Below, piece after piece: positions 3,628 through 58,875 of a DNA stretch of 64,000 nucleotides. The notes below the pieces were generated by a model that was not told where the DNA came from, searched no databases, and was given only the letters and a program-made list of their open reading frames with translations. Numbering within the stretch: position 1 is the stretch's first letter; each line of letters opens with the position of its first letter. Source of the stretch: an uncultured Acidobacteriota bacterium (GTDB taxonomy: Bacteria; Acidobacteriota; Thermoanaerobaculia; UBA5066; Gp7-AA6). Made by a program: the position numbers and the translations under genes. The stretch is taken from positions 324,843-388,842 of the forward strand of contig CAVQCH010000002.1 in NCBI GenBank assembly GCA_963710945.1, in the 5' to 3' direction.

Positions 3628-5541
<1,914 letters not shown>

Positions 5542-5601: not shown

Positions 5602-6117
5602 TTATTGCTCCGGGACGACCTCATAGATGTCCGGCAGGTGGGCGTGGAGCCCCTCGTGCTCCATCCCGTAGCCGGCGTAGAGCCCGGTCCCTTCCGCGGA
5701 AAACAGCGAGAAATCGACCGTCACGCTGGTCGTCCGATCGAGCGGCTTGTCCACCACGGCGCCGAGGTGCAGGGAGGCGGCGCCGCTGCCCTTCAAGTGG
5801 TCCATCAGGTAGGTCTCGATGATGCCGGTGTGGACCACGTCCTTGAGCATCAGCACGTGCTTGTCCTTCACCGTGAAACCGCTCGAAAAGTCGATCTGCA
5901 GGACCTCGCGGGCGCCCTCGGCCCGGCGCACGTGCAGGTACTCGCACGAGAACGGCCCGCGCAGCTTGCGGGCGAGGTCGGCCATGAAGAAGGCCGACCC
6001 CTTGAGGATCGAGACGAGGATGAGGGGCCGGTCGCGCAGGTCCCGGTCCACGGCGCCGGCGACGGCTTCCACGCGCTCGGCGATCTGACGCGATTCATAG
6101 CGGCGCTCGAGTCTCAC
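5602..6117 (-). CDS. hpt: hypoxanthine-guanine phosphoribosyltransferase
   Basis: PRTase fold with PRPP-binding motif VLMLKDVVHTGII; conserved position between tilS and ftsH. Confidence 0.85.
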   Translation of the reverse strand: MRLERRYESRQIAERVEAVAGAVDRDLRDRPLILVSILKGSAFFMADLARKLRGPFSCEYLHVRRAEGAREVLQIDFSSGFTVKDKHVLMLKDVVHTGIIETYLMDHLKGSGAASLHLGAVVDKPLDRTTSVTVDFSLFSAEGTGLYAGYGMEHEGLHAHLPDIYEVVPEQ

Positions 6118-22259: not shown

Positions 22260-22400
22260 GCGACTCGATTTCAGCGGCCGTCCCGCGAAAAGTCGATCGC
22301 AAAGGACCTATCGGGGCCTTAGAGTTGCTTCGCGGCCGGCCTCGACTCGCATATCATGGGAAGGCAGGTGTCTACTAAACGGAGGGAGTCAGGTCGTCAC

Positions 22401-23174
22401 ATGAATGCAGCGAAGGTCACGACGAGCGCGCCTGCCGGCGCGGCGCCGGCGGAGGCGGGAACGGTGAACGCGGCACCCCGTGCCGTGCGGTTCGTCAACA
22501 ACGACGACGCCTCCTGCCGGATGTTCGGCAGCAACGTCCAGGAGGCCCTGAGCCACGTGCCCCCCTGGGCGCCGCACGCCATCTTCCTGCCGGCCGTCGC
22601 CTTTGCGCTCGCGGCGGCCTTCCGGACGGCGAGCCCGGCGCGGGTGGGGGTGCTCGTTCTCGGAGGACTCTTCCTCTGGACTCTCCTCGAGTACCTGATC
22701 CACCGGTCGATCTTCCATCCGCCGCAGTGGATCGAAGACGACACGCGGCGCGTCGTCGGCTCGCTCGCCCCGGGCCAGGCCGTGTTGCCGGCCCTCCCGA
22801 CGCTGCGCCACAAGTTCTATTTCGTGGTGCATGGCGTGCATCACGACTATCCCAACGACTCGACCCGTCTGGTGATGCCGCCATCCGTGAGCATCCCGCT
22901 GGCGGCTCTTTTCTTTCTGGCCTTCGAGGCGGTCTTCGGGGCCGCGGCGGCGCCCGCGGTGTTCGCCGGCTTCATCGCGGGATACCTGGTATACGACACG
23001 ATCCACTTCGTCGTGCATCACGCGAGCGGATCCTGGGCGCTCGTCCGGGCGCTGAAGCGCCGCCACTTCCGGCATCACTACGCGGACTCGAGCCACGACT
23101 TCGGCGTCAGCTCGCCGCTGTGGGACCTCGTCCTCGGCACGCTCGGAAGCGCGGAGACCGGACGCCGCCGCTGA
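22401..23174 (+). CDS. fatty-acid hydroxylase / sterol-desaturase superfamily membrane protein
   Basis: His boxes HRSIFH, HGVHHDYP, HFVVHH, HHYAD in a 4-TM protein; GGAGGGAG Shine-Dalgarno. Confidence 0.75.
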   Translation: MNAAKVTTSAPAGAAPAEAGTVNAAPRAVRFVNNDDASCRMFGSNVQEALSHVPPWAPHAIFLPAVAFALAAAFRTASPARVGVLVLGGLFLWTLLEYLIHRSIFHPPQWIEDDTRRVVGSLAPGQAVLPALPTLRHKFYFVVHGVHHDYPNDSTRLVMPPSVSIPLAALFFLAFEAVFGAAAAPAVFAGFIAGYLVYDTIHFVVHHASGSWALVRALKRRHFRHHYADSSHDFGVSSPLWDLVLGTLGSAETGRRR

Positions 23175-23258
23175 TACGGGCGACAGGCCCGCGCGGCCTG
23201 TCGGCTGTCCGTCTCGTCTGAAACTGCCGCGTGTAGATGAGACGGCGCCGAGCCGCCC

Positions 23259-24342
23259 CTAATTCGTCAGGGAGATTTCGACGGTCTCGCTCTTGCCGGG
23301 TCCCACGACCACCGTGCGCTCCTCGGTCTTCATGCCGGGCCGGGAGACGGTGACCGAGTGCTGCCCCGGCGGGACCTGCATGCCCCTGGCCAGGGTCGAA
23401 AGCTCCTGCCCGGACCCCACGAAAGTGTCGTTCAGGTAAACGGCCGCGTCGCCCGGCTGAATCAGGAAGAGGATGCGGGCTCTCGTTTTCGGCACCGTGC
23501 CGGCGCCCGGAGGCGGCGCCTGGACCTGAACCTCATCACCGTAGGGCGCAGGCTGGTCGCGGTCGCGCCAGGACTGGTACTGGCCCTGGGCCCAATCGCC
23601 CTGGTCCTCGACCGCCTGGACGTCCGCGGACGGGTACGTCGAAACGTAGCCCGACGTGTCGTAGCCGCTCCACCAACCTGGCGACCCCCAACCCCAACCC
23701 CAACCCCAGTCTGCCCAACCGAGGCCCCAGCCCCATCCCCATCCCGGGTAGTAGTAGTAGCCGCCGCCGTAGTAGGGGTTGTATCCGTGTCCGTAGTAAC
23801 CGTGGCCACCGTAGTAACCGTGACCACCGTGATAGCCGCCGCCACCGTGATAGCCGCCGCCGCTGCCACCGTGATAGCCGCCGCCGCTGCCACCGTGGTA
23901 GCCGCCACCGCTGCCACCGTGATAGCCGCCGCCGCTGCCACCGTGATAGCCGCCGCCGCTGCCACCGTGATAGCCGCCGCCGCTGCCACCGTGGTAGCCG
24001 CCACCGCTGCCACCGTGATAGCCGCCGCCGCCACCACCGTGGTAGCCGCCACCGCTGCCACCGCTGATAGCCGCCGCCGCCGCTGCCACCTCGATAGCCG
24101 CCACCGGCACCGGGATAGCTGCCGCCACCGCCGCCGTGAGATCCGCTGCTGCCACCACCGTGATAACCGCCACCGCCGCCGTGGGATCCACCGCCACCGC
24201 CGCCACCGTGGGATCCGCCGCCACCACCGTGAGACCCACCGCCCGAATGTTGGCCGGGCGCCGCGGTCGCCAAACCAAAGGCCAGCGCGCCCGCGAGAAG
24301 GAGCGGTTGAACCTTCGAGCCAGCCCTCAAAAACTTGTTCAT
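23259..24342 (-). CDS. secreted Gly/Tyr/His-rich repeat protein with GW repeats and C-terminal PEGA domain (one +1 frameshift inside the repeat array near 24075)
   Basis: Signal peptide MNKFLRAGSKVQPLLLAGALAFGLATAAPG; (GGSGGGYH)n then GYYGGHGYYGHGYNPYYGGGYYYYPGWGWGWGLGWADWGWGWGWGSPGWW; C-terminal PEGA-like ...ILFLIQPGDAAVYLNDTFVGSG...PPGQHSVTVSRPGMKTEERTVVVGPGKSETVEISL. Confidence 0.7.
23800..24240 (-). repeat. imperfect 24-bp tandem repeat array (about 18 units) encoding GGSGGGYH / GGGSHGG
   Basis: Unit ccaccgtgatagccgccgccgctg repeated head-to-tail with minor variants. Confidence 0.85.
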
Positions 24343-24563
24343 GGACAAAGCCTTCGCATTCTAACCACGCAAGAACGGGGCCACGCGGTGAGCGCCGCCC
24401 GCGGCCGGAAGTTCAATGGATTGGGCAGGTTGGACGGGCGCCCTCGCCGGGCGTCACCGTGCCCTGACCTCGGCATAGGTCAAAGCGTCACCCGGAAGTC
24501 GCGATCCGCCGATCCCTCGACACACGTGCGCCCGCAGATACAGTTCACAACGACGGAGGACGC

Positions 24564-25175
24564 ATGACGACCACTCCCGAGACCCCTCATTTCGATCCGA
24601 CGCATCCCCAGCATCACTTTCGGTTCCACGTTCCCCATCTTCATCTCGGGTCGGCCTTCGGGGACGACTGGTTCGCGCTGAAGGCCGAGGCATTCGCACG
24701 GTTCTTCGGCACGCCGGTCTTTCTCGTGGCGCAGAGCGTGATCGTCGCCGTCTGGATAGGGCTGAACGTCTTTCGAGTGGTCTCGTTCGACCTTTATCCC
24801 TTCATCCTGCTCAATCTGGCGTTCAGCCTCCAGGCCGCGTACGCCGCACCGCTCATCCTGCTCGCCCAGACTCGACAGGCGGACCGGGACAAGGCGCACT
24901 CCGAGGCGGACGCCCAGCATCGGGAAGCCCTCGCGGCGGCCAGCGCGCAGCGCCAGCTTCTCGCCGCGGAGCAGACCGCGCAGCTGCTGGTACTGGTCGA
25001 GCAGAACACGCGACTGACGGAGCTCGCAAAGGAGCTGAGCCACCGGATCGAGGCGCTCACCCTCGACCTGCACGGAAAGGTCTGCAGGGGAGAGCCAGAC
25101 GGGAATGCGGGGTCCGGCGGCGCCGCCAAGAGTGTTCCCCCGCGACGTAGAATCCGCGCGGCGGTAATTCGATAG
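24564..25175 (+). CDS. DUF1003 domain membrane protein
   Basis: FGTPVFLVAQSVIVAVWIGLNV...FDLYPFILLNLAFSLQAAYAAPLILLAQTRQADRDK, a DUF1003 signature. Confidence 0.7.
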   Translation: MTTTPETPHFDPTHPQHHFRFHVPHLHLGSAFGDDWFALKAEAFARFFGTPVFLVAQSVIVAVWIGLNVFRVVSFDLYPFILLNLAFSLQAAYAAPLILLAQTRQADRDKAHSEADAQHREALAAASAQRQLLAAEQTAQLLVLVEQNTRLTELAKELSHRIEALTLDLHGKVCRGEPDGNAGSGGAAKSVPPRRRIRAAVIR

Positions 25176-25237: not shown

Positions 25238-28200
25238 ATGGGGGAGGTGTACCGGGCGCGGGACTCGAAGTTGAAGCGCGACGTGGCGGTCAAGGTACTG
25301 CCGCAGTCGCTGGCCGCCGATCCCGATGCGCTGGCGCGGTTCGAGCGCGAGGCCCTGGCGGTCGCGGCGCTGTCCCATCCGAACATCCTCTCCATCTTCG
25401 ACTTCGGGACGCATGAGGGGACGGCCTACGCGGTCATGGAGCTTCTGGACGGGGAGACGCTGCGCGGGAAGATCGACACCGGCCCGATTCTGCAGAAGCA
25501 GGCCGTGGACTATGCGCTCCAGATCGCGAAGGGCCTTTCCGCCGCCCACGAGAAGGGGATCGTCCACCGGGATCTGAAGCCCGAGAACCTCTTCGTTTCC
25601 AGGGACGGCCATCTCAAGATCCTCGACTTCGGTCTGGCCAAGCGCGTCGAGGCCGTCGCTCCGGGCGAGGAGACGAGCGCGCCGACGGGTTCGGGCCACA
25701 CGGAGCCCGGGACGGTGATGGGCACGGCGGGCTACATGTCGCCCGAGCAGGTGAAGGGGTTCGCGGTGGATCATCGCTCGGACATCTTCTCGTTCGGGAC
25801 GATCCTCTACGAGCTGCTTTCGGGCAGGAAGGCGTTCAAGCGGGATTCGAGCGCCGAGACGATGGCGGCCATCCTGCGAGACGACCCGCCGGAGTTGTCG
25901 GAATCCGGGCGGAACATCTCTCCCGCTCTCGACCGTGTCGTCAAGCATTGCCTGGAGAAGGACCGGGAACATCGGTTCCAGTCGGCCAGGGACATCGTGT
26001 TCAACCTCTCGGAGCAGCTGACGCCAGCGCCGACGGGCGGCCCCCGGGAAACCGCCCCGCCGATCGGCTCCAAGGGCTTCTGGATCGCCGTGCTGCCCTT
26101 CAAGTACGGAGGCGCCAACGCCGATCTCGCGGCCCTGGCCGACGGGCTCTCTGACGAAATCGTGACGGGTCTTTCGCGGTTTCGATATCTCTCGGTCGTT
26201 GCGAGCGCCTCGGCGGCGCGTCTGAAGGGCGTAGCGGGAGACGAGCGGTCCCTGGGCGCTCAACTCGGCGCGCGTTACGTGCTGGAGGGGAGCATTCGCG
26301 AGGGCGGTTCCGCCATTCGCGTGAGCGCCCGGCTCGTCGACGCCCAGACGGGAGCGCAGCTCTGGTCCGAGACGTTTGAACGGGACCTCCGGACGTCGGG
26401 CATCTTCGCGGCTCAGGACGACGTCGCCGCCCGCATCGTCGCGACGGTCGCCGACAGCTACGGGGTGCTCGTGCATTCGATAAGTGCCGCGGCCCGGCAG
26501 AAGGACGACGCCGATCTCACGCCGTTGGAGTGGCAGTTCCAGTATTTCGCCTACCGCGAGCAGATCACTCCCTCGGCCTACGCGGAGCTCAAGAGCCGGC
26601 TGGAGCGTGCGGTGGAGCGGGACGGCCGCCAGTCGGACCTCTGGGCGTGTCTCGCGCAGATCTTCGTCGACGAATACGCGTTTGGCTTCGGGACCGACCC
26701 GGCCGCTCTCGATCGTGCCCTGGCCGCGGCCCGCCGCGCGGTCGAACTCGATCGGGCGAACCAGTTTGCGCTCGTCGCGCTCGCCCAGACGCACTTCTTT
26801 CGCCAGGACCTCGCGGCGTTTGGTCCCGCGGCCGAGCGCGCGATGGCCCTCAACCCGCTCAACACCGACGCGGTCGGGATCCTGGGGTTGCAGATCGTGC
26901 ACACCGGCGACTTCGAGCGAGGCGCCGCGATCGTGCGTCGCGCGATGGAGCTCAATGCCAATCACGCGGGTTGGATGCATTTCGCTCCGCTCTGGGAGCA
27001 CTTCCACAAGGGCGAGTACGAGCAGGCTCTCGAGTGCGCGAACCGGGTAGACGTGCCCGGCCTTTTCTGGCCTTATCTCGTGGTGGCGTCTGCCTGCGGG
27101 CACCTCGGCCGGCGCGCCGAAGCCGCGGCCGCGGTCCGCGACCTGTTGTCGCTCGACCCCGAATTTGCGGCGCACGCGCGCTCGAACATCGGGAGCTGGC
27201 ACTTCGCGAGCGGCCTGATGGGGCCGATCCTGGATGGGCTGCGCAAGGCGGGGCTCGATCTGGCTCCCGAGCAGGAGCCTGCCGCCGCGGCTCGCCGGCG
27301 CGCTCCGGCTTCCGCAGCGCACTCGGGCGCCGCCCGCGCCGACGAGGGCTTCCGGGTCGCGGTGCTGCCGTTCAAGTACGGCGGAACCGACGCCGCTGTC
27401 ACGACGCTGGCCGAAGGGCTGGCGGAGGGGATCGTGACCGGGCTGTCACGTTTCTCCTACCTCCGGGTGATCTCGCGCACTTCCGGCGACAAGAATCTCG
27501 GTGCGCGCTATGTGATGGAGGGAAGTCTGCGGCAGGCGGGGACCAAACTGCGTCTGGCGGTACAGCTCGTGGACACGACTTCCGGTGCAAATCTCTGGGC
27601 CGAAGACTATGAACGCCCGTTCGCCCCGGACGCGGCCTTCGAGCTTCAGGACGATCTGGTTCCGCGGATCGTTTCGACGGTCGCGGATCAGTACGGCGCG
27701 CTGGTGCACAGCATGAGCGAGTCGCTGCGCGGCAGAAGCGCCACGGAATACTCCGCGCACGAGGCGGTGCTGCGGGCCTTCGGTTACTGGGAGCGCGTCA
27801 CCCTGGAGGAACACGCGGAAGTTCGCGAGATCCTCGAAGCGGCGGTTGCTCGCGCCCCCGGCCACAGCGACTGCCTCGCCGAACTGTCGTTGATTTACGG
27901 GCACGAGTACGTGTTCGGATACAACCTCAGGCCCGATCCACTGGGCCGCGCGCGTGCGGCCGCGCAACGCGCGGTCGCATCGGCGCCGACCAGCCACTTC
28001 GCCCACTGCGCATTGGCTTGCGGCTTGTTCTTCCTGAGGGACTTCCAGGCCTTCCGAACGGCGGCGGACCGCACCCTCGCCCTGAATGGAATGGATTCCT
28101 CCACCGCGGCGCTGCTCGGAACGATGATCGCCTATGCCGGTGACTGGGAATACGGGCTGGGCGTCGTGGAACGAGCGAAGCAACTCAACCCGCATCATCC

Positions 28201-31168
28201 GGGCTGGTATCACTACGTTGCCCTTACCGATGCCTACCGCCGGCGTGACTATCGCGGCGCACTGGCCATTGCCCTCAAGGTCAACATGCCCGGCTACTAT
28301 TGGCCGCACGTGTTGCTGGCCGCCGTCTATGGGCAGCTCGGTGAACTGGAGCGCGCGCGCACGGCGCTGCGGGAGCTGCACGCGCTGCTGCCGACCTTCG
28401 GCGCGACGGCGCGAGAGGAATTCGGCAAGTGGCATGACGTCGAGCTCACCGAGCATCTGCTCGACGGGCTGCGCAAGGCGGGGCTGGAGATTCCGCCGGA
28501 GAACGAGACCGCAGCCCCGCCGCCCGTACTCGCTCTTTCTTCCGCGACCGACTCGGGTGCGGCCCGCGCCGACGAGGGATTCTGGGTCGCGGTGCTGCCC
28601 TTCAAGTACGGCGGCGCCGACGCTTCCCTCACGGCTCTGGCCGACGGGCTGACCGAAGAGATCGTGACCGGCCTCTCGCGCTTCTCCTACCTGAGGGTGA
28701 TCGCGCGCAGTTCGACCTCGCGGTTTGCGAACGAACCGGTAGATGTGCGCTCTGCCGGCAAGGAACTGGGCGCTCGCTACGTGATGGAAGGCACCCTGCG
28801 GCAGGCGGGGAGGAAGCTTCGCCTCGCCGTCCAGCTGGTGGATGCGGCTTCCGGCGCTCATCTCTGGGCCGAGAGCTATGAGCGGATCTATCGCCCGGAG
28901 GCGGTCTTCGAGTTACAGGACGACCTGGTTCCGCGGATCGTTTCGACGGTCGCCGACATGCACGGGGTTCTGCCCCGGACCATGAGCGAGGCTGTGCGCA
29001 GCCGCGCTCCCGAGCAGTTGAGCCCCTACGAAGCCGTGCTGCGCAGCTTCGGCTACTCGACGCGGGTCACGCCCGAAGAACTTGCCGCGGCGCGCTCCGG
29101 CCTGGAATTGGCGGTGCGGAAGGCGCCGGCCTATGCCGACGCCTGGGCGATGCTGGCCTGGCTGCGCATCCAGGACCATGCGCAAAGTTTCAATCTTCAG
29201 CCGGATTCCCTGGCGAGCGGGCTGACCGCGGCGCGGCGGGCGGTGGAGGCGGCGCCATCCAGTCACCTGGCCCATGGCATGCTCGCCCAGGCGCTCTTCT
29301 TCCACAAAGAATTCCAGAGCTTCCGCAATGCGGCGGAGCGGGCCGTGGCCCTCAACCCGATGAACGGCGACTCCATCGCTTTTCTCGGTGAGTTGCTGAC
29401 CTATGCGGGTGACCGGGAGCGCGGCCTCGAGCTGGCGGGGCGCGCCAAGCAGCTCAATCCCAACCACCCCGGATGGTACTGGTATACCGATTTCTACGAC
29501 GCGTACCGCCGGGGCGACGACCGTGGCGCGCTCGATGCCGCGCTCAAGGTAAACCTGCCGGGGCAGTGGTTTTGGCACGCGGCGGTGGCCGCGGCCTGCG
29601 GGCAGCTCGGGGACCGCGTCGCGGCCAACAGGGCCTCGAAGGCCCTGCTCGAGCGGCGACCGGACTTCGCCGCCACCGCGCGCAGCGATATCGAGAAATG
29701 GTGGGAGCCCGAGTACGTCGAGCGTCTCATCGACGGCTGGCGCAAGGCGGGTCTGGACGTTGCCGTGCTGGCGCAAGCCGATTCCGCGGCGAAGCCGGCC
29801 GCGGCGGTCGCGATCGCGGTGTTGCCCTTCTCGGACATGAGCCCCGCGAAGGACCAGGACTACCTCTGCGAGGGCATGGCCGAGGAAATCATGAACGCGC
29901 TCGTTCGCATCGACGGGATTCGGGTGGCGTCGCGGACCTCGGCCTTCCGCGCGCGGCAGGAGGGCGGCGACCTGCCCGCGATCGCCCGCGCCCTCTCCGT
30001 GAACCACGTCCTCGAAGGGAGCGTGCGAACGGCCGGCACGCGGCTGCGCGTCACGGCACAACTCACCGACGTCGCGAGCGGCTACCAGCTCTGGTCGGAG
30101 CGATTCGATCGCGATGCTGCCGACATCTTCGCCGTCCAGGACGAAATTGCGGCCGGCGTCGTCGAAGCCGTCAAGGCGCGACTCGCGCCGGGGGAGCGGA
30201 CGATTCACGCTCGTCCGCAAGCGCGCAACCTCGAGGCCTACCGCAGCTACTTGAAGGGGCGGCATCTTCGGTACGCGAAGGAGGACTATGGCGGGGCGAT
30301 CCGCGCGTTCGAGGAGGCCGTCCGCCTCGACCCCACGCACGCGCCTTCGTGGACCGGTCTGGCGGAAAGCAACGCGGCCGCGGCGAACATGGGAGCGATC
30401 CCCGCGCGCGAGGCCTGCGCGGCCGCGAGAAATGCCCTGGCAACCGCGGTCGCGCTGGAGGGAGAGTCCGCGGACAGCCTTCATGCCGAGGCCTTCGTGG
30501 CCCTGATCGAACGACGATGGGCGGCGATGGAGGCCACCTGGCGCCGGGCCATCGAGCTCCAACCCACTCACAGCCTGGCCCTGGGCTCGTTCGGGATCAG
30601 CCTCTGCATACGGCAGAAGGCCGACGAGGGATTGCGGTTCCTGGAGCGCGCCCGGGAGGCCGATCCGCTCGCGTCCTTTCCTCTGATGCTCACCGGATGG
30701 GCGATGCTGTGCATCGGAAGGCCGCAGGAGGCCCGGCGTTACGCGGAGGACGCGCTCTCTTTCGAGAAAGAGGACGCTTCGGCCTTGCTTTGCTCGATCA
30801 TGGCGAAGATCGCCCTCGGGCAATTCGAAGAAGGAATTGCGATCGCGGAGCACCTCGTCGCGGTGTCGCACCGCGGTGTCTCCCTCTTCCTCGCTCTCCT
30901 GGGATGGGCGCTCGCGACCGCGGGACGGAAGGACGAAGCCCGGAAACTTCTCCAGGAGCTGCGAGCCCTTCCGGCGCACCACTTCGTCTCGGAGGGCTGG
31001 CTGCATGGCGCGCTCGGCGAGATCGACGCGGCCTTCGAAGCGCTCGCGCGGGCGGAAGAGGCGTACCAGGCCACTCTCTACTACACGGGATTGCCCGGCT
31101 TCGATTCTCTCCGCGCAGATCCGCGATTCGGAGCGCTGCTCGAGAGGCTGGAGCTGGCGTCCGCTTGA
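25238..31168 (+). CDS. giant Ser/Thr protein kinase (about 2 kaa): N-terminal Hanks kinase domain plus four tandem sensor modules (TolB-N-like LPF alpha/beta domain + TPR-like helical domain). The true start is probably upstream (about 25172, non-canonical ATA/CTG) because the glycine loop begins before the first ATG
   Basis: Kinase motifs GAGGMGEVY, AVKVL, HRDLKPEN, DFG, GTAGYMSPE; module starts GFWIAVLPFKYGG (26075), GFRVAVLPFKYGG (27348), GFWVAVLPFKYGG (28578), AIAVLPFSDMSPAKDQDYLCEGMAEEIMNALVRI (about 29800). Confidence 0.85.
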   Translation: MGEVYRARDSKLKRDVAVKVLPQSLAADPDALARFEREALAVAALSHPNILSIFDFGTHEGTAYAVMELLDGETLRGKIDTGPILQKQAVDYALQIAKGLSAAHEKGIVHRDLKPENLFVSRDGHLKILDFGLAKRVEAVAPGEETSAPTGSGHTEPGTVMGTAGYMSPEQVKGFAVDHRSDIFSFGTILYELLSGRKAFKRDSSAETMAAILRDDPPELSESGRNISPALDRVVKHCLEKDREHRFQSARDIVFNLSEQLTPAPTGGPRETAPPIGSKGFWIAVLPFKYGGANADLAALADGLSDEIVTGLSRFRYLSVVASASAARLKGVAGDERSLGAQLGARYVLEGSIREGGSAIRVSARLVDAQTGAQLWSETFERDLRTSGIFAAQDDVAARIVATVADSYGVLVHSISAAARQKDDADLTPLEWQFQYFAYREQITPSAYAELKSRLERAVERDGRQSDLWACLAQIFVDEYAFGFGTDPAALDRALAAARRAVELDRANQFALVALAQTHFFRQDLAAFGPAAERAMALNPLNTDAVGILGLQIVHTGDFERGAAIVRRAMELNANHAGWMHFAPLWEHFHKGEYEQALECANRVDVPGLFWPYLVVASACGHLGRRAEAAAAVRDLLSLDPEFAAHARSNIGSWHFASGLMGPILDGLRKAGLDLAPEQEPAAAARRRAPASAAHSGAARADEGFRVAVLPFKYGGTDAAVTTLAEGLAEGIVTGLSRFSYLRVISRTSGDKNLGARYVMEGSLRQAGTKLRLAVQLVDTTSGANLWAEDYERPFAPDAAFELQDDLVPRIVSTVADQYGALVHSMSESLRGRSATEYSAHEAVLRAFGYWERVTLEEHAEVREILEAAVARAPGHSDCLAELSLIYGHEYVFGYNLRPDPLGRARAAAQRAVASAPTSHFAHCALACGLFFLRDFQAFRTAADRTLALNGMDSSTAALLGTMIAYAGDWEYGLGVVERAKQLNPHHPGWYHYVALTDAYRRRDYRGALAIALKVNMPGYYWPHVLLAAVYGQLGELERARTALRELHALLPTFGATAREEFGKWHDVELTEHLLDGLRKAGLEIPPENETAAPPPVLALSSATDSGAARADEGFWVAVLPFKYGGADASLTALADGLTEEIVTGLSRFSYLRVIARSSTSRFANEPVDVRSAGKELGARYVMEGTLRQAGRKLRLAVQLVDAASGAHLWAESYERIYRPEAVFELQDDLVPRIVSTVADMHGVLPRTMSEAVRSRAPEQLSPYEAVLRSFGYSTRVTPEELAAARSGLELAVRKAPAYADAWAMLAWLRIQDHAQSFNLQPDSLASGLTAARRAVEAAPSSHLAHGMLAQALFFHKEFQSFRNAAERAVALNPMNGDSIAFLGELLTYAGDRERGLELAGRAKQLNPNHPGWYWYTDFYDAYRRGDDRGALDAALKVNLPGQWFWHAAVAAACGQLGDRVAANRASKALLERRPDFAATARSDIEKWWEPEYVERLIDGWRKAGLDVAVLAQADSAAKPAAAVAIAVLPFSDMSPAKDQDYLCEGMAEEIMNALVRIDGIRVASRTSAFRARQEGGDLPAIARALSVNHVLEGSVRTAGTRLRVTAQLTDVASGYQLWSERFDRDAADIFAVQDEIAAGVVEAVKARLAPGERTIHARPQARNLEAYRSYLKGRHLRYAKEDYGGAIRAFEEAVRLDPTHAPSWTGLAESNAAAANMGAIPAREACAAARNALATAVALEGESADSLHAEAFVALIERRWAAMEATWRRAIELQPTHSLALGSFGISLCIRQKADEGLRFLERAREADPLASFPLMLTGWAMLCIGRPQEARRYAEDALSFEKEDASALLCSIMAKIALGQFEEGIAIAEHLVAVSHRGVSLFLALLGWALATAGRKDEARKLLQELRALPAHHFVSEGWLHGALGEIDAAFEALARAEEAYQATLYYTGLPGFDSLRADPRFGALLERLELASA

Positions 31169-43865: not shown

Positions 43866-45120
43866 TCAGAGGTAGCGCAGCCACGGCTCGCTTCGCCGCC
43901 GCTTGAGCTCGCCCATCCAGCGGCACGGCACGTAGAGGATCGCCACCACAGCGAGCGTGACGAAGTACAGCAGGGGAAGGCTCCACGCGTACCCTTCGGG
44001 CGGCGGCGGGTTGCCCATCGGGTGGTTCGCGAAGAGCCAGGCGTTCACCCGCCCTTCGCGCACGAGCGAGACCGCGATCGCCGCCAGATGGATGAGCGGG
44101 ATGTGCAGGACGTAGAAGAAGAACGGGACGCGACCGAAAACCATCAGGGCACTGGCCAGACGGCCGTGCGCCGTCTCGAGCAGCGGAATCGACGCGATCA
44201 TCGGGCCGAGCGTCATGAGCAGGAAAAGCAGCGACGCGGGGTACTTGTTCGTGTTCAGGAATCGCAGGAGCGCGGGCATCGGCGGCCCGGCGGTCCCGGC
44301 GCTGGCGTCAGCGCCGCCATCGGGCGGCGGGTTCCACTTGCCGGGATCCCCGTATAGATCGAAGCCGCGGAGCGCGAGAAAGAGGGCGATCGCACCGCCG
44401 CCGATCGCGAGACACCAGCGGCGCCGTCGCGCGGTGTCCATGCGCATGATCGGGCCGAAGGCGTATCCCACCGCCATCACGCCGATCCAGGGGATGAGCG
44501 AATAGAGCACGGTAAGCCGCATGCCGAACACGTCGATGGGCCCGCTGGCGAAGCCGAAGTACAGGATCTTCCAGAGCCCGGCCAGGCTGCGCGTCGTTCA
44601 GGGTGCCGGCGAGCTGCCAGAACCGTCCGTCCATCAGATCGTGGCCGGCGATGATCGCCACGCCCAGCGCGCCAACGGCGGCGATCGGCAGGTACACGAG
44701 GCCCGCCATGAGGATCATGCACCAGCCGATGACCCAGATCACGCCCGCCAGGGCGTAGTGCGAGTAGTCGAAGTTGAAGGTCCATCCGAAGCGGATGAAC
44801 GTCATCTCCATGAGGATGAGCCAGGCGCCCCGCACGATCAGGAAGCGGGCGAGGGGTCCGCGCCCGGCGCGGCCGCCGAGCTTGCCGCCGTAGAGGAAGA
44901 TCGCCGTGCCCGCCAGGAAGACGAAGGCGGGGGCGCAGAAGTGGGTGACCCAGCGCGTGAAGAAGACGGCCGGGGTCCGCCCGCCGGCGGCGACGCCCGA
45001 GAACACGCGAACGTGGTCGAGCGCCATCAGCACCATGACCGCCCCCCGGATGATGTCGAGCGACGGGATGCGGGCGCGATCGAGCCCGGACGAGCCGTCG
45101 GTCTGGCGAATGGGCGGCAC
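43866..45120 (-). CDS. DUF1624 / HGSNAT-like acyltransferase-family membrane protein (one frameshift near 44550)
   Basis: N-terminal motif LDIIRGAVMVLMALDHVR; the two halves (44308-45120 and 43866-44531 ORFs) are contiguous and complementary. Confidence 0.6.
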
Positions 45121-45247
45121 GGTGGCCTCCTCGGTGCCGGGATGCTACCTCTCCGCGGCCGGGCCCGTGTCAGGCATCTGATGCACCTGCATCATTTCGC
45201 CGGGCGAAATCCGCGCCATCGTGGAATGAGCGACGAGGAGGGGCGAA

Positions 45248-57394: not shown

Positions 57395-58782
57395 CTACTT
57401 CCGCGCCGCGGTGCGCGTCTCCTTCTGAGTCACGATACGAGCGCCTCGACGCTCTCGCGGAACACCGCGCGTGTGCCGGTCGATGTCGGCCTCGGTGGTG
57501 TCGGGGCAGATGAGCGCCATGTTGTGGAAGGGCGTCATCAGGATGCCGCGGTTGAGCGCGGCGAGGTGCATGTAGCGGTCGAGGTCGGGATCGACCGCGG
57601 CGGCCGCCTCGGCGCCGTTGTTCGGCGGCGTCGCGCGGAACCAGTACTCGGCCCGGCAGCCGAGCTGCGTGACGTGCCAGGGGAGCCGGTGCTCGGCGAT
57701 CACGCCCTCGACTCCCTCGGCGAAGCGGCGTGCCAGCGGGATCGTGCGCGCGTACGCCTCCTCGGTCAGGACGTGCTCGAGCGTCGCGCGCATCGCGGCG
57801 AGCGAGAGGGCGTTGCCGGCGAGCGTGCCGCCGATGCCGCCCGTGTCCGCCGTCCTCGATCGTCGTCGCGGCGCGGATGCGATCGGCCACCTCCGCCGAC
57901 AGCCCGTAGACGGCCGCGGGGACGCCGCCGGCGATCGGCTTTCCGATCGTGAGGATGTCGGGCGACAGGCCGTGCGCGCGCGTGTAGCCGCCCGGGCCGG
58001 CGCGAGATCGTGTGCGTCTCGTCGATGATGAGAAGCGTCCCCGTGCGCCGCGTGATCTCGCGCAGGGCCTCGTGGAAGCCGGGCTGCGGGATGCACGATC
58101 CCGATGTTCGTCATGACCGGCTCGGCCAGCACGCAGGCGACGTCGCCGTGGGCCAGCGCCTCCTCGAGCGCCGGCGACGTCGTTGAACTCGACGACCCGG
58201 GTCGTCTCGGCGGGATCGACCGGCGGTCCGAGATTGCCGCTGCGCGGACCGGCGGCGCCGTTCCTCAGGGTGATGAACGTCTCGTCCACGGTGCCGTGGT
58301 AGCACCAGTTGAAGACCAGGATCTTCGGCCGCCGTGACGTGGCGCGCGAGGCGGATGGCGAAGCGGTTGGCGTCGGTCGCCGTCAGCGTGGTCTGCCAGT
58401 AGGGCAGGCCGAAGCGCCGCGCGAGCTCTTCGCCGACCCAGATGGCATCCTCGGTCGGCAGCATGAAGGTGATGCCGCGCCGCGCCTGCGCCGCGATCGC
58501 CGCGACCGAGGCCGCGGGCGCGTGGCCCGTCATGGCGCCGGTGTCGCCGAGGCAGAGGTCGAGATAGCGGTGGCCGTCCACGTCGGTGAAGTGGGCGCCG
58601 GACGCTTCCTGGACGAAGATCGGGAAGCTGCCGGCCCAGCGCACCATCCAGTTCATGGGCACGCCGCCGAGCAGGCTCTGCTGCGCGCGCTCGAAGAGGG
58701 CCCGCGAGCGGGGATGCGCGGTGGTGAACCGCTCCTGTTCTTTCGTGAGGAGGCCGGAGAGCCGGTCTCGATCTATAGTCAT
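57395..58782 (-). pseudogene. class-III (PLP-dependent, GSA-aminomutase-like) aminotransferase broken by five or more frameshifts
   Basis: Fragments ...GAHFTDVDGHRYLDLCLGDTGAMTGHAP..., ...DETFITLRNG..., ...LAEPVMTNIGIV..., ...HGLSPDILTIGKPIAGGVPAAVYG... (PLP-lysine region) and a C-terminal third lie in at least four frames. Confidence 0.65.
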
Positions 58783-58875
58783 CGCGCGGCCGGAATCTTA
58801 TGCCGGGCGCCAAACTTCGGCCCGCGGCGGCCGTATGAATTGCGAAAGCGAGATTCCTTTTTGGAGGAGAGCCAT

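Follow-up and report, generated by a model that had tools for sequence, protein, structure and literature searches.

A tandem array of Gly-, His- and Tyr-rich repeats lies on the minus strand of a 64,000-nucleotide stretch of DNA from an uncultured Acidobacteriota bacterium (contig CAVQCH010000002.1; the whole stretch is called the window below). It raises the question of whether these repeats belong to one intact gene and what kind of protein such a gene would make. That 24342..23259 on the minus strand is one gene, encoding a protein of about 360 aa exported through a Sec signal peptide, is well supported. The explanation that we favour for the locus as a whole, at somewhat better than an even chance, is an intact, exported PEGA-domain protein that is expressed from a sigma-54 type promoter and would function as a metal-binding, self-associating polymer of the cell envelope.

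The open reading frame (ORF) listing and translation place the gene between an ATG at 24342 and a stop codon at 23261-23259. In the given sequence, it is divided between two overlapping minus-strand ORFs, 24348..23536 and 24278..23259. The upstream ORF begins with MNKFLRAGSKVQPLLLAGALAFGLATAAPGQHSGGGSHGGG and later turns Arg/Trp-rich; the downstream ORF has an Ala/Val/Thr-rich start, followed by GGSGGGYH repeats, a Tyr-rich block, a Trp-Gly block and the C-terminal domain. The frame switches between the two ORFs at 24064, where the sequence has one extra G (tatcaGcggtggc, against tatcacggtggc in the repeat consensus); removal of this base yields a single continuous protein of 360 aa. The minus strand is taken as coding because three of the four variable columns among the nine regular repeat units are third codon positions, synonymous in the minus-strand frame, and because homologues exist in this frame. 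The same two observations exclude the Ala/Thr/Val-rich plus-strand ORF 23358..24467, which the earlier note, a first description made from the bare sequence, had held out as the competing coding sequence; the PEGA domain, the promoter and the ribosome-binding site are likewise all on the minus strand. The gene has the following parts.

24253..24342, minus strand: start codon and signal peptide, residues 1-30, with the likely signal peptidase I site, placed by rule, between AAPG and QHSGGG
24063..24252, minus strand: irregular Gly/His(/Tyr) units in a codon-by-codon layout (SGGGSH, GGGGGSH, GGGGGGGSH, GGGGGYH, GGGSSGSH and others)
24064, minus strand: extra G (probably an error of consensus or assembly) that shifts the frame by +1, from ORF 24348..23536 to ORF 24278..23259
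23847..24062, minus strand: regular array of nine 24-bp units (eight GGSGGGYH and one GGGGGGYH), which differ almost solely at synonymous third positions
23820-23846, minus strand: GGGGYH-GGH, shorter GYH/GGH units directly after the regular array
23748..23819, minus strand: Tyr-rich block GYYGGHGYYGHGYNPYYGGGYYYY with GHGYY motifs, conserved in homologues
23670..23747, minus strand: Trp-Gly block PGWGWGWGLGWADWGWGWGWGSPGWW, the most widely conserved low-complexity feature of the family (AlphaFold2 pLDDT ~40)
23484..23669, minus strand: acidic Gln/Pro-rich linker, predicted to be disordered from AlphaFold2 and composition
23262..23480, minus strand: C-terminal PEGA β-sandwich with a transthyretin-like fold (Pfam, AlphaFold2, Foldseek), followed by the stop codon at 23259-23261

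The N-terminus, MNKFLRAGSKVQPLLLAGALAFGLATAAPG followed by QH, combines basic residues, a hydrophobic core and small residues at -3/-1, as judged by eye and from conservation in homologues. The A-x-(A/G) junction before Gln, with Q-H after the cut, is kept across the homologues. The protein has no lipobox and contains zero Cys residues, and by rule these features fit Sec export of a non-lipoprotein, the mature form of which probably starts Q-H-S-G-G-G.

The low-complexity region spans approximately 200 residues and consists of 56% Gly, 13% Tyr, 10% His, 10% Ser and 5% Trp, with scarcely any charged residues besides His. Tandem Repeats Finder detects a period of 24 over 23835-24222 (14-16 copies, score 437-453). 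Six irregular units of the GGGSH/GGGYH type precede the regular array, and the His-bearing units number about 16 in all. The region holds 20 of the 21 His residues of the protein, which has 16 HGG motifs in total, and ten successive His residues are spaced by exactly 8. Its calculated net charge falls from +19 at pH 4.5 to +1 at pH 7.5. AlphaFold2 assigns a pLDDT of ~40 everywhere ahead of the C-terminal domain, which indicates predicted disorder, and a defined fold of the Trp-Gly or Gly/His regions, such as polyglycine-II bundles or Trp zippers, is unsupported on the same score.

The last 73 residues are modelled by AlphaFold2 as a seven-strand β-sandwich with a pLDDT of >95, an all-β domain of the ~70-aa size of PEGA domains. 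The Pfam profile PF08308 matches residues 296-358 with 25.2 bits in the full protein and 28.1 bits in the C-terminal 136 aa, above its gathering cut-off of 20.8. The CarboxypepD_reg profile scores 26-29 bits, under its cut-off of 32.3, and Foldseek matches the domain to carboxypeptidase regulatory and transthyretin-like domains. The position of the PEGA motif reads S-R-P-G-M (RPGM, RPGL or RPGF in homologues), with the P-G core retained and the E and A not retained. Among close homologues, 40 columns of the PEGA region are invariant. No meaningful match was found in NCBIfam, no sequence relative among solved structures, and no Pfam or NCBIfam match at E<=1 to the profiles of the ZraP/Spy/CpxP chaperones.

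These results bear out most of the architecture proposed in the earlier note: the order from signal peptide through Gly/His/Tyr repeats and Trp-Gly block to a C-terminal PEGA-like β-sandwich, the signal-peptide-like features (by rule, and conserved in homologues), the existence of the 24-bp DNA array, and the Tyr and Trp-Gly blocks, which match its description exactly. The GGSGGGYH repeats are present; the count of ~18 copies is not reproduced, since eight exact copies and one GGGGGGYH make nine regular units. Similarly, the frameshift exists and sits where the irregular units give way to the regular array rather than inside the array. The note also recognised no described family, and Pfam, NCBIfam, homologue and structure searches name nothing beyond a PEGA domain-containing protein. 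What it overlooked is a large conserved family with paralogues, a sigma-54 type promoter and an upstream palindrome.

Whether the gene is intact in the organism depends on the extra G at 24064, which is most likely an assembly or consensus error. A genuine frameshift, which would leave either a pseudogene or a truncated product of 268 aa (signal peptide, Gly/His units and out-of-frame Arg/Trp-rich sequence), is improbable. It has in its favour, and against an intact gene, that the sequence as given carries the extra base. However, no stop codon occurs after the shift, the repeat units remain clean and differ synonymously, and the PEGA domain is 72-81% identical to that of orthologues. Shifts in the same direction also affect two unrelated genes of the window, which together hold at least six +1 shifts besides the one at 24064. 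The class-III aminotransferase gene 58797..57395 on the minus strand passes through all three frames by about five successive +1 shifts (0>1>2>0>1>2), so that positions 4-109 and 278-375 of the Pfam profile fall in separate ORFs; either consensus errors have clustered here or the gene has decayed. A HGSNAT_cat-like membrane acyltransferase gene, 45144..43866 on the minus strand, has one +1 shift near 44510-44620, with profile positions 1-141 in one ORF and 163-196 in the other.

Breaks in homologous loci also follow the type of assembly. Loci with Flye-style 'contig_N' names were counted as long-read, and MEGAHIT/JGI loci were counted as a short-read or JGI group. Five of nine Microflora Danica (MFD)/ENA 'contig_N' loci are broken, compared with none of 14 MEGAHIT/JGI loci (hypergeometric p = 0.0037). 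The broken long-read loci are L002/L008, L003 (three shifts), L010, L014 and L022, and their breaks lie at differing positions, run in both directions and reach up to 3 per gene.

A frameshift with a function, whether as phase variation through the array or as programmed +1 ribosomal frameshifting, is close to refuted. The position of 24064 at the edge of a tandem repeat and the several homologues that are also out of frame within their low-complexity region are what such a mechanism would lead one to expect. Nevertheless, the 24-bp unit is a multiple of 3, so a change in copy number cannot switch the frame, and the shift is a single-base insertion at a site without a homopolymer or short-unit tract. 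The scattered positions and mixed directions of the homologue breaks differ from a contingency locus, in which variants gather at one tract. They likewise share no common shift position or conserved slippery site, and all 14 short-read/JGI family genes read in a single frame. Of the two options that the earlier note had left side by side, mis-assembly is thus favoured and phase variation is unsupported; its suggestion that the locus is prone to length variation holds for in-frame length differences across the family, not for on/off switching by the repeats. A practical lesson is that long-read assemblies put frameshifts into this G-rich repeat.

In the two-PEGA locus of a long-read metagenome-assembled genome (MAG) (L022, ~5800-6000), the linker reads PEPRGRRPALLEQGKQRAHPSG... 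in place of the PEPEGGVQRYWSKEKNASAHP... of its relatives before the frame is restored, a pattern suggestive of two indels that compensate each other.

With the C-terminal 186 aa as query, 32 homologous proteins were returned. The closest full-length homologue (P0001, 283 aa) is 72% identical; its blocks follow in the same order, and its Gly/His part is shorter. A scan of species-representative genomes identified 17 loci, all in Acidobacteriota/Thermoanaerobaculia MAGs. Two paralogue types were distinguished, with one and with two PEGA domains, and several MAGs hold both. The one-PEGA type includes the window gene and L001, L002, L003, L004, L010, L011 and L012. In the two-PEGA type, which comprises ~370-440 aa, the Gly/His/Tyr/Trp region is shorter and is followed by two PEGA domains with an acidic linker between them.

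Repeat expansion in the one-PEGA orthologues was independent and involved a different unit in each: GGSGGGYH in the window gene, GGGGYN or GGGGYH in L012, GGHGYN in L011, GGHGYY in L003 and GGGGSHGGGSGWH in L004. The 24-bp array of the window grew by in-frame duplication of its unit, and no other intact gene in the comparison has a low-complexity region as long as that of the window gene (193 aa by the measure used there). Two near-identical genes from two samples (L005 and L006) differ by 9 residues, in frame, within their Trp-Gly repeats; length variation in the family is therefore real.

The wider reach of this architecture was assessed with a profile of the C-terminal domain, which matched 1305 proteins at E<=1e-3 and 366 at E<=1e-10 among 1.84 billion representatives. 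Composition was surveyed in the 113 mid-size proteins among the top 150 profile matches. A 60-aa window with at least 60% Gly/Tyr/Trp/His occurs in 62 of them and at least two Trp-Gly motifs in 33; on these counts, the combination of a Gly/Tyr/Trp low-complexity region with a PEGA domain is widespread, common in metagenomes and unnamed. The family is also under-annotated, since callers often truncate its genes or call an antisense Ala/Thr/Val-rich ORF. In public gene calls, the genes are cut down to the C-terminal PEGA part, with an antisense or out-of-frame ORF across the Gly-rich repeats (L002 7503-7847, L004 7518-7772, L003 7582-8004), and this truncation explains the many short 'proteins' among the matches. 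The gene of L004 is intact yet miscalled.

The two-PEGA paralogue lies in conserved synteny (L005 2584-9829, with equivalents in L009, L015, L016 and L018-L023). It is accompanied by holB and tmk, which lie on the opposite strand, together with genes for a GAF-SpoIIE phosphatase, a TPR protein (MKGLGMKKRR...) and a GAF-AAA+-HTH_8 regulator.

Three elements precede the start codon on the minus strand.

24351..24355, minus strand: Shine-Dalgarno-like GAAGG, 8 nt before the ATG (GGAGG in most homologues)
24369..24383, minus strand: sigma-54 type -24 (GG)/-12 (GC) element TGGCCCCGTTCTTGC at canonical spacing, 26 nt before the ATG
24465..24482, minus strand: perfect inverted repeat TGACCtatgccgaGGTCA, a candidate upstream activating sequence, within the block GGrTGACGCTCTGACC-N8-GGTCAGG

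The consensus of sigma-54 -24/-12 promoters is TGGCACG-N4-TTGCW. TGGC-N7-TTGC is present upstream of every family locus examined, 26-40 nt before the ATG, and one locus has TGGCAC. Alignments indicate that ~150-200 nt upstream of the start are conserved across both paralogue types and across genomes, and in the anchored upstream alignment TGGCc.CCTTcTTGC is the sole stretch that is at least 90% invariant. The window element has the GG and GC bases at the exact spacing and close upstream of the gene. We infer that the gene is sigma-54-dependent, with a transcription start near 24357 and a leader of ~15 nt that would contain GAAGG. No sigma-70-like promoter was found on the minus strand of this region; the single sigma-70-like match, 24517-24544 on the plus strand, serves the divergent DUF1003 gene.

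The palindrome at 24482-24465 is the only perfect match to TGACC-N8-GGTCA in the window, and it is conserved in the upstream alignments. Counting duplicates, 17 of the 23 family entries, which come from different genomes, carry TGAC-N10-GTCA at a distance of 99-100 nt upstream of TGGC. Sites of upstream activators are expected ~80-150 bp from the promoter. The palindrome is read as a candidate site for an enhancer-binding protein because this distance and the fixed phasing fit the expectation for such a protein. It is more likely to be a DNA site than an RNA stem, because the changes that its arms show in some loci are not compensatory and RNAalifold returns no meaningful structure. A metagenome scan with GACGCTCTGACC-N8-GGTCAG gave 44 loci, of which only L026 and L047 have the promoter, and both belong to the PEGA family; the scan returned no other regulon targets, and the remaining loci look like chance matches.

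The upstream conservation could instead reflect a structured leader RNA or riboswitch, or the site of another regulator or sigma factor, which we consider very improbable. The reach of the conservation, ~150 nt across paralogues and genomes, is compatible with this alternative, as is the GGAACTTCC motif that single-PEGA loci share between the palindrome and the promoter element. In contrast, no Rfam match was found, and the RNAalifold consensus is weak (-6 kcal/mol, covariation -0.47), with no convincing structure. The invariant bases are precisely the GG and TTGC of the -24/-12 consensus at exact spacing, which leaves a leader of only ~15 nt.

Two further sequence features of the upstream regions were recorded. 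A (T/G)GAACTTCCGG motif at 24400-24425 on the minus strand, between the palindrome and the -24/-12 element, is conserved in one-PEGA loci only, and two-PEGA loci have GCGCTTGG; possible roles of the motif are a site for a bending protein and a second promoter element. In L019 (~5027-5080), TAGAATGTGGAGGCGGTGTCGAT is tandemly duplicated between the sigma-54 promoter and the start codon, which yields two copies of the ribosome-binding region.

The function of the protein as a metal-binding, pH-responsive disordered polymer is proposed from its chemistry and by analogy. An enhancer-binding protein at 24482-24465 would activate the sigma-54 type promoter at 24383-24369 from ~100 bp upstream, so that the gene is expressed only in response to a signal, and the product would be exported to the periplasm or cell envelope. 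There, the 16 HGG motifs could act as multivalent sites for divalent metals (Cu2+, Zn2+, Ni2+). With ~20 His residues, the chain would be polycationic below ~pH 6 and nearly neutral at pH 7.5, and either deprotonation or metal binding may cause the Tyr/Trp-rich chain to collapse and self-associate. The PEGA domain would serve as a folded anchor or interaction module, and the length of the array would set capacity and valency.

The closest analogy for metal binding is the prion protein octarepeat (PHGGGWGQ)n. Each HGGGW binds one Cu2+ through the His imidazole and the amides of the next two Gly residues (PMC2663819). At low occupancy, several His residues share one Cu2+, and added repeats change the affinity and the binding mode (PMC2663819). 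The window array resembles it in an 8-residue His-Gly-Gly period with a single His per unit that stands before GG(G) and next to an aromatic residue, in its predicted disordered Gly-rich extracytoplasmic region, and in a copy number that varies by in-frame units. However, the window unit GGSGGGYH (read as YHGGSGGG) has Tyr before His, not Trp after GGG; the array contains no Trp and hence no HGGGW, although homologue L004 has GWHGGGGSHGGGS. No PDB or Pfam relationship was found between the two proteins. The window protein is bacterial, carries a different folded domain and has no sequence homology to the prion protein.

The analogy for self-association is with the histidine-rich squid beak proteins HBP-1/2, in which phase separation of GHGxY tandem repeats is triggered by His deprotonation and stabilised by Tyr clustering, and four copies suffice (PMC6884462). 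The window protein is similarly Gly/His/Tyr-rich, predicted to be disordered and secreted, has GHGYY motifs, and would be expected to be soluble when its His residues are protonated and self-associating when they are deprotonated. Unlike the beak proteins, it has few GHGxY motifs, a longer and Gly-richer unit and no GAGFA-type hydrophobic spacers, and it adds a Trp-Gly block and a PEGA domain.

For compartment and regulation, the protein may be compared with ZraP of Enterobacteria, a periplasmic zinc-binding chaperone with a sigma-54/ZraR dependent promoter that is activated from an upstream site and responds to metal or envelope stress (PMC4987338). Both are small exported proteins with Gly/His sequence; in ZraP, this forms the metal-binding ends, and the sigma-54 control of the window gene is predicted from its promoter. 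The two have no sequence or domain relation (Pfam finds only PEGA and CarboxypepD_reg in the window protein), and the window gene has no adjacent two-component system. Signal peptides followed by Gly-rich Tyr/His repeats also occur in plant cell-wall glycine-rich proteins (GRPs) and in the Nereis jaw protein Nvjp-1, for which Tyr cross-linking or metal-His hardening has been proposed; these proteins are eukaryotic, unrelated in sequence and lack a PEGA domain, and the resemblance is compositional only.

The PEGA domain itself (PF08308) was defined in archaeal and bacterial cell-surface proteins (PMC2447325). The window protein agrees with these in a C-terminal domain of ~70 aa over the gathering score, a predicted transthyretin-like fold and an export signal as in surface or envelope proteins. 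It differs in having RPGM instead of PEGA, and the domain is one without an established function. In the literature on the PEGA domain, no described protein with an N-terminal Gly/His/Tyr/Trp region of ~200 aa was found.

Several findings weigh against a metal-binding polymer under sigma-54 control. Of the 113 mid-size matches, 8 have at least three HGG motifs; His-Gly arrays thus appear to be specific to a sub-clade, and metal binding through His may be a speciality of that sub-clade, with Gly/Tyr/Trp as the common denominator. The one-PEGA type has no conserved gene neighbourhood across homologous loci, and no metal-homeostasis gene lies near the one-PEGA loci examined. No sigma-54 gene was found in the window, and a search for the GAFTGA and Walker A motifs found no activator gene there. 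The activator-like GAF-AAA+-HTH_8 gene of L005 (8309-9829), ~6 kb from the two-PEGA paralogue, has GVATGV instead of GAFTGA.

The emphasis of the wider family on a shared Gly/Tyr/Trp-rich region rather than a His array is also what favours a rival view, in which the low-complexity region serves chiefly as a self-assembling material for structure or adhesion (a coacervate, a hydrogel or a Tyr-cross-linked component of the envelope or matrix) and not a metal buffer. His would then serve as a pH switch only, and Tyr and Trp would make the material cohere or stick to polysaccharide or membrane interfaces. This view, close to the resemblance to structural or adhesive proteins that the earlier note drew from composition, overlaps with the favoured explanation and does not exclude it, the difference being which activity matters; we regard it as possible, at clearly less than an even chance. 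The GHGYY motifs of the window gene, six of which occur in tandem in L003, agree with it, given that squid beak peptides phase-separate once they have four or more GHGxY tandem repeats (PMC6884462), as do the predicted disorder of the region and the collapse of its charge near neutral pH. However, there is no evidence of secretion past the cytoplasmic membrane, and no oxidase, peroxidase or polysaccharide gene occurs among the neighbours of the examined loci. The lineage-specific expansion of His-bearing units speaks for the metal-binding explanation: units that contain His were expanded in every one-PEGA orthologue, which points to selection on the number of His residues.

A bolder version, which we advance as tentative and rather unlikely, joins the two analogies. 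The protein could be a bacterial counterpart of the prion octarepeats and the squid beak proteins, exported under sigma-54 induction to form metal- or pH-triggered condensates or gels in the periplasm or at the surface. Array length could then tune metal capacity, and the Trp-Gly block could attach the material to a membrane interface or to polysaccharide. Such a protein would represent a type of phase-separating or metal-sponge system that is new for the extracytoplasmic space of bacteria.

The domain is already known, and the protein would be annotated as a 'PEGA domain-containing protein'. As far as our literature searches show, the family-wide Gly/His/Tyr/Trp region, the octad His array with its likeness to octarepeats and beak proteins, the independent repeat expansions, and the conserved sigma-54 promoter with its enhancer are undescribed. 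If the favoured explanation is true, the disordered polymer exported by soil Acidobacteriota would be switchable: it would take up metal ions or build a protective or adhesive phase in the envelope, and tandem repeats would adjust its capacity over short evolutionary time. The protein would also offer a simple bacterial model for octarepeat-type metal binding and extracytoplasmic phase separation, and the conserved promoter and enhancer would provide a handle on an unstudied regulon of the Thermoanaerobaculia.

At the 3´ end of the gene, a terminator scan found no hairpin with a T-run, and two other structures lie between the convergent gene ends.

23176-23208 and 23209-23245, no strand assigned: two GC-rich hairpins, possible terminators, without T-tracts

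The convergent neighbour encodes a fatty-acid hydroxylase family protein (22356-23174, plus strand) and the divergent neighbour a DUF1003 membrane protein (24564-25175, plus strand); neither is kept beside the homologues. Beyond the DUF1003 gene, an intact ORF of 1976 aa (25238-31168, plus strand) encodes a Ser/Thr kinase domain at its N-terminus, after which come four large repeats of a module with 'VLPFKYGG...', plus TPR-like regions. Kinase genes similar to this ORF also flank the homologous loci L001 and L002.

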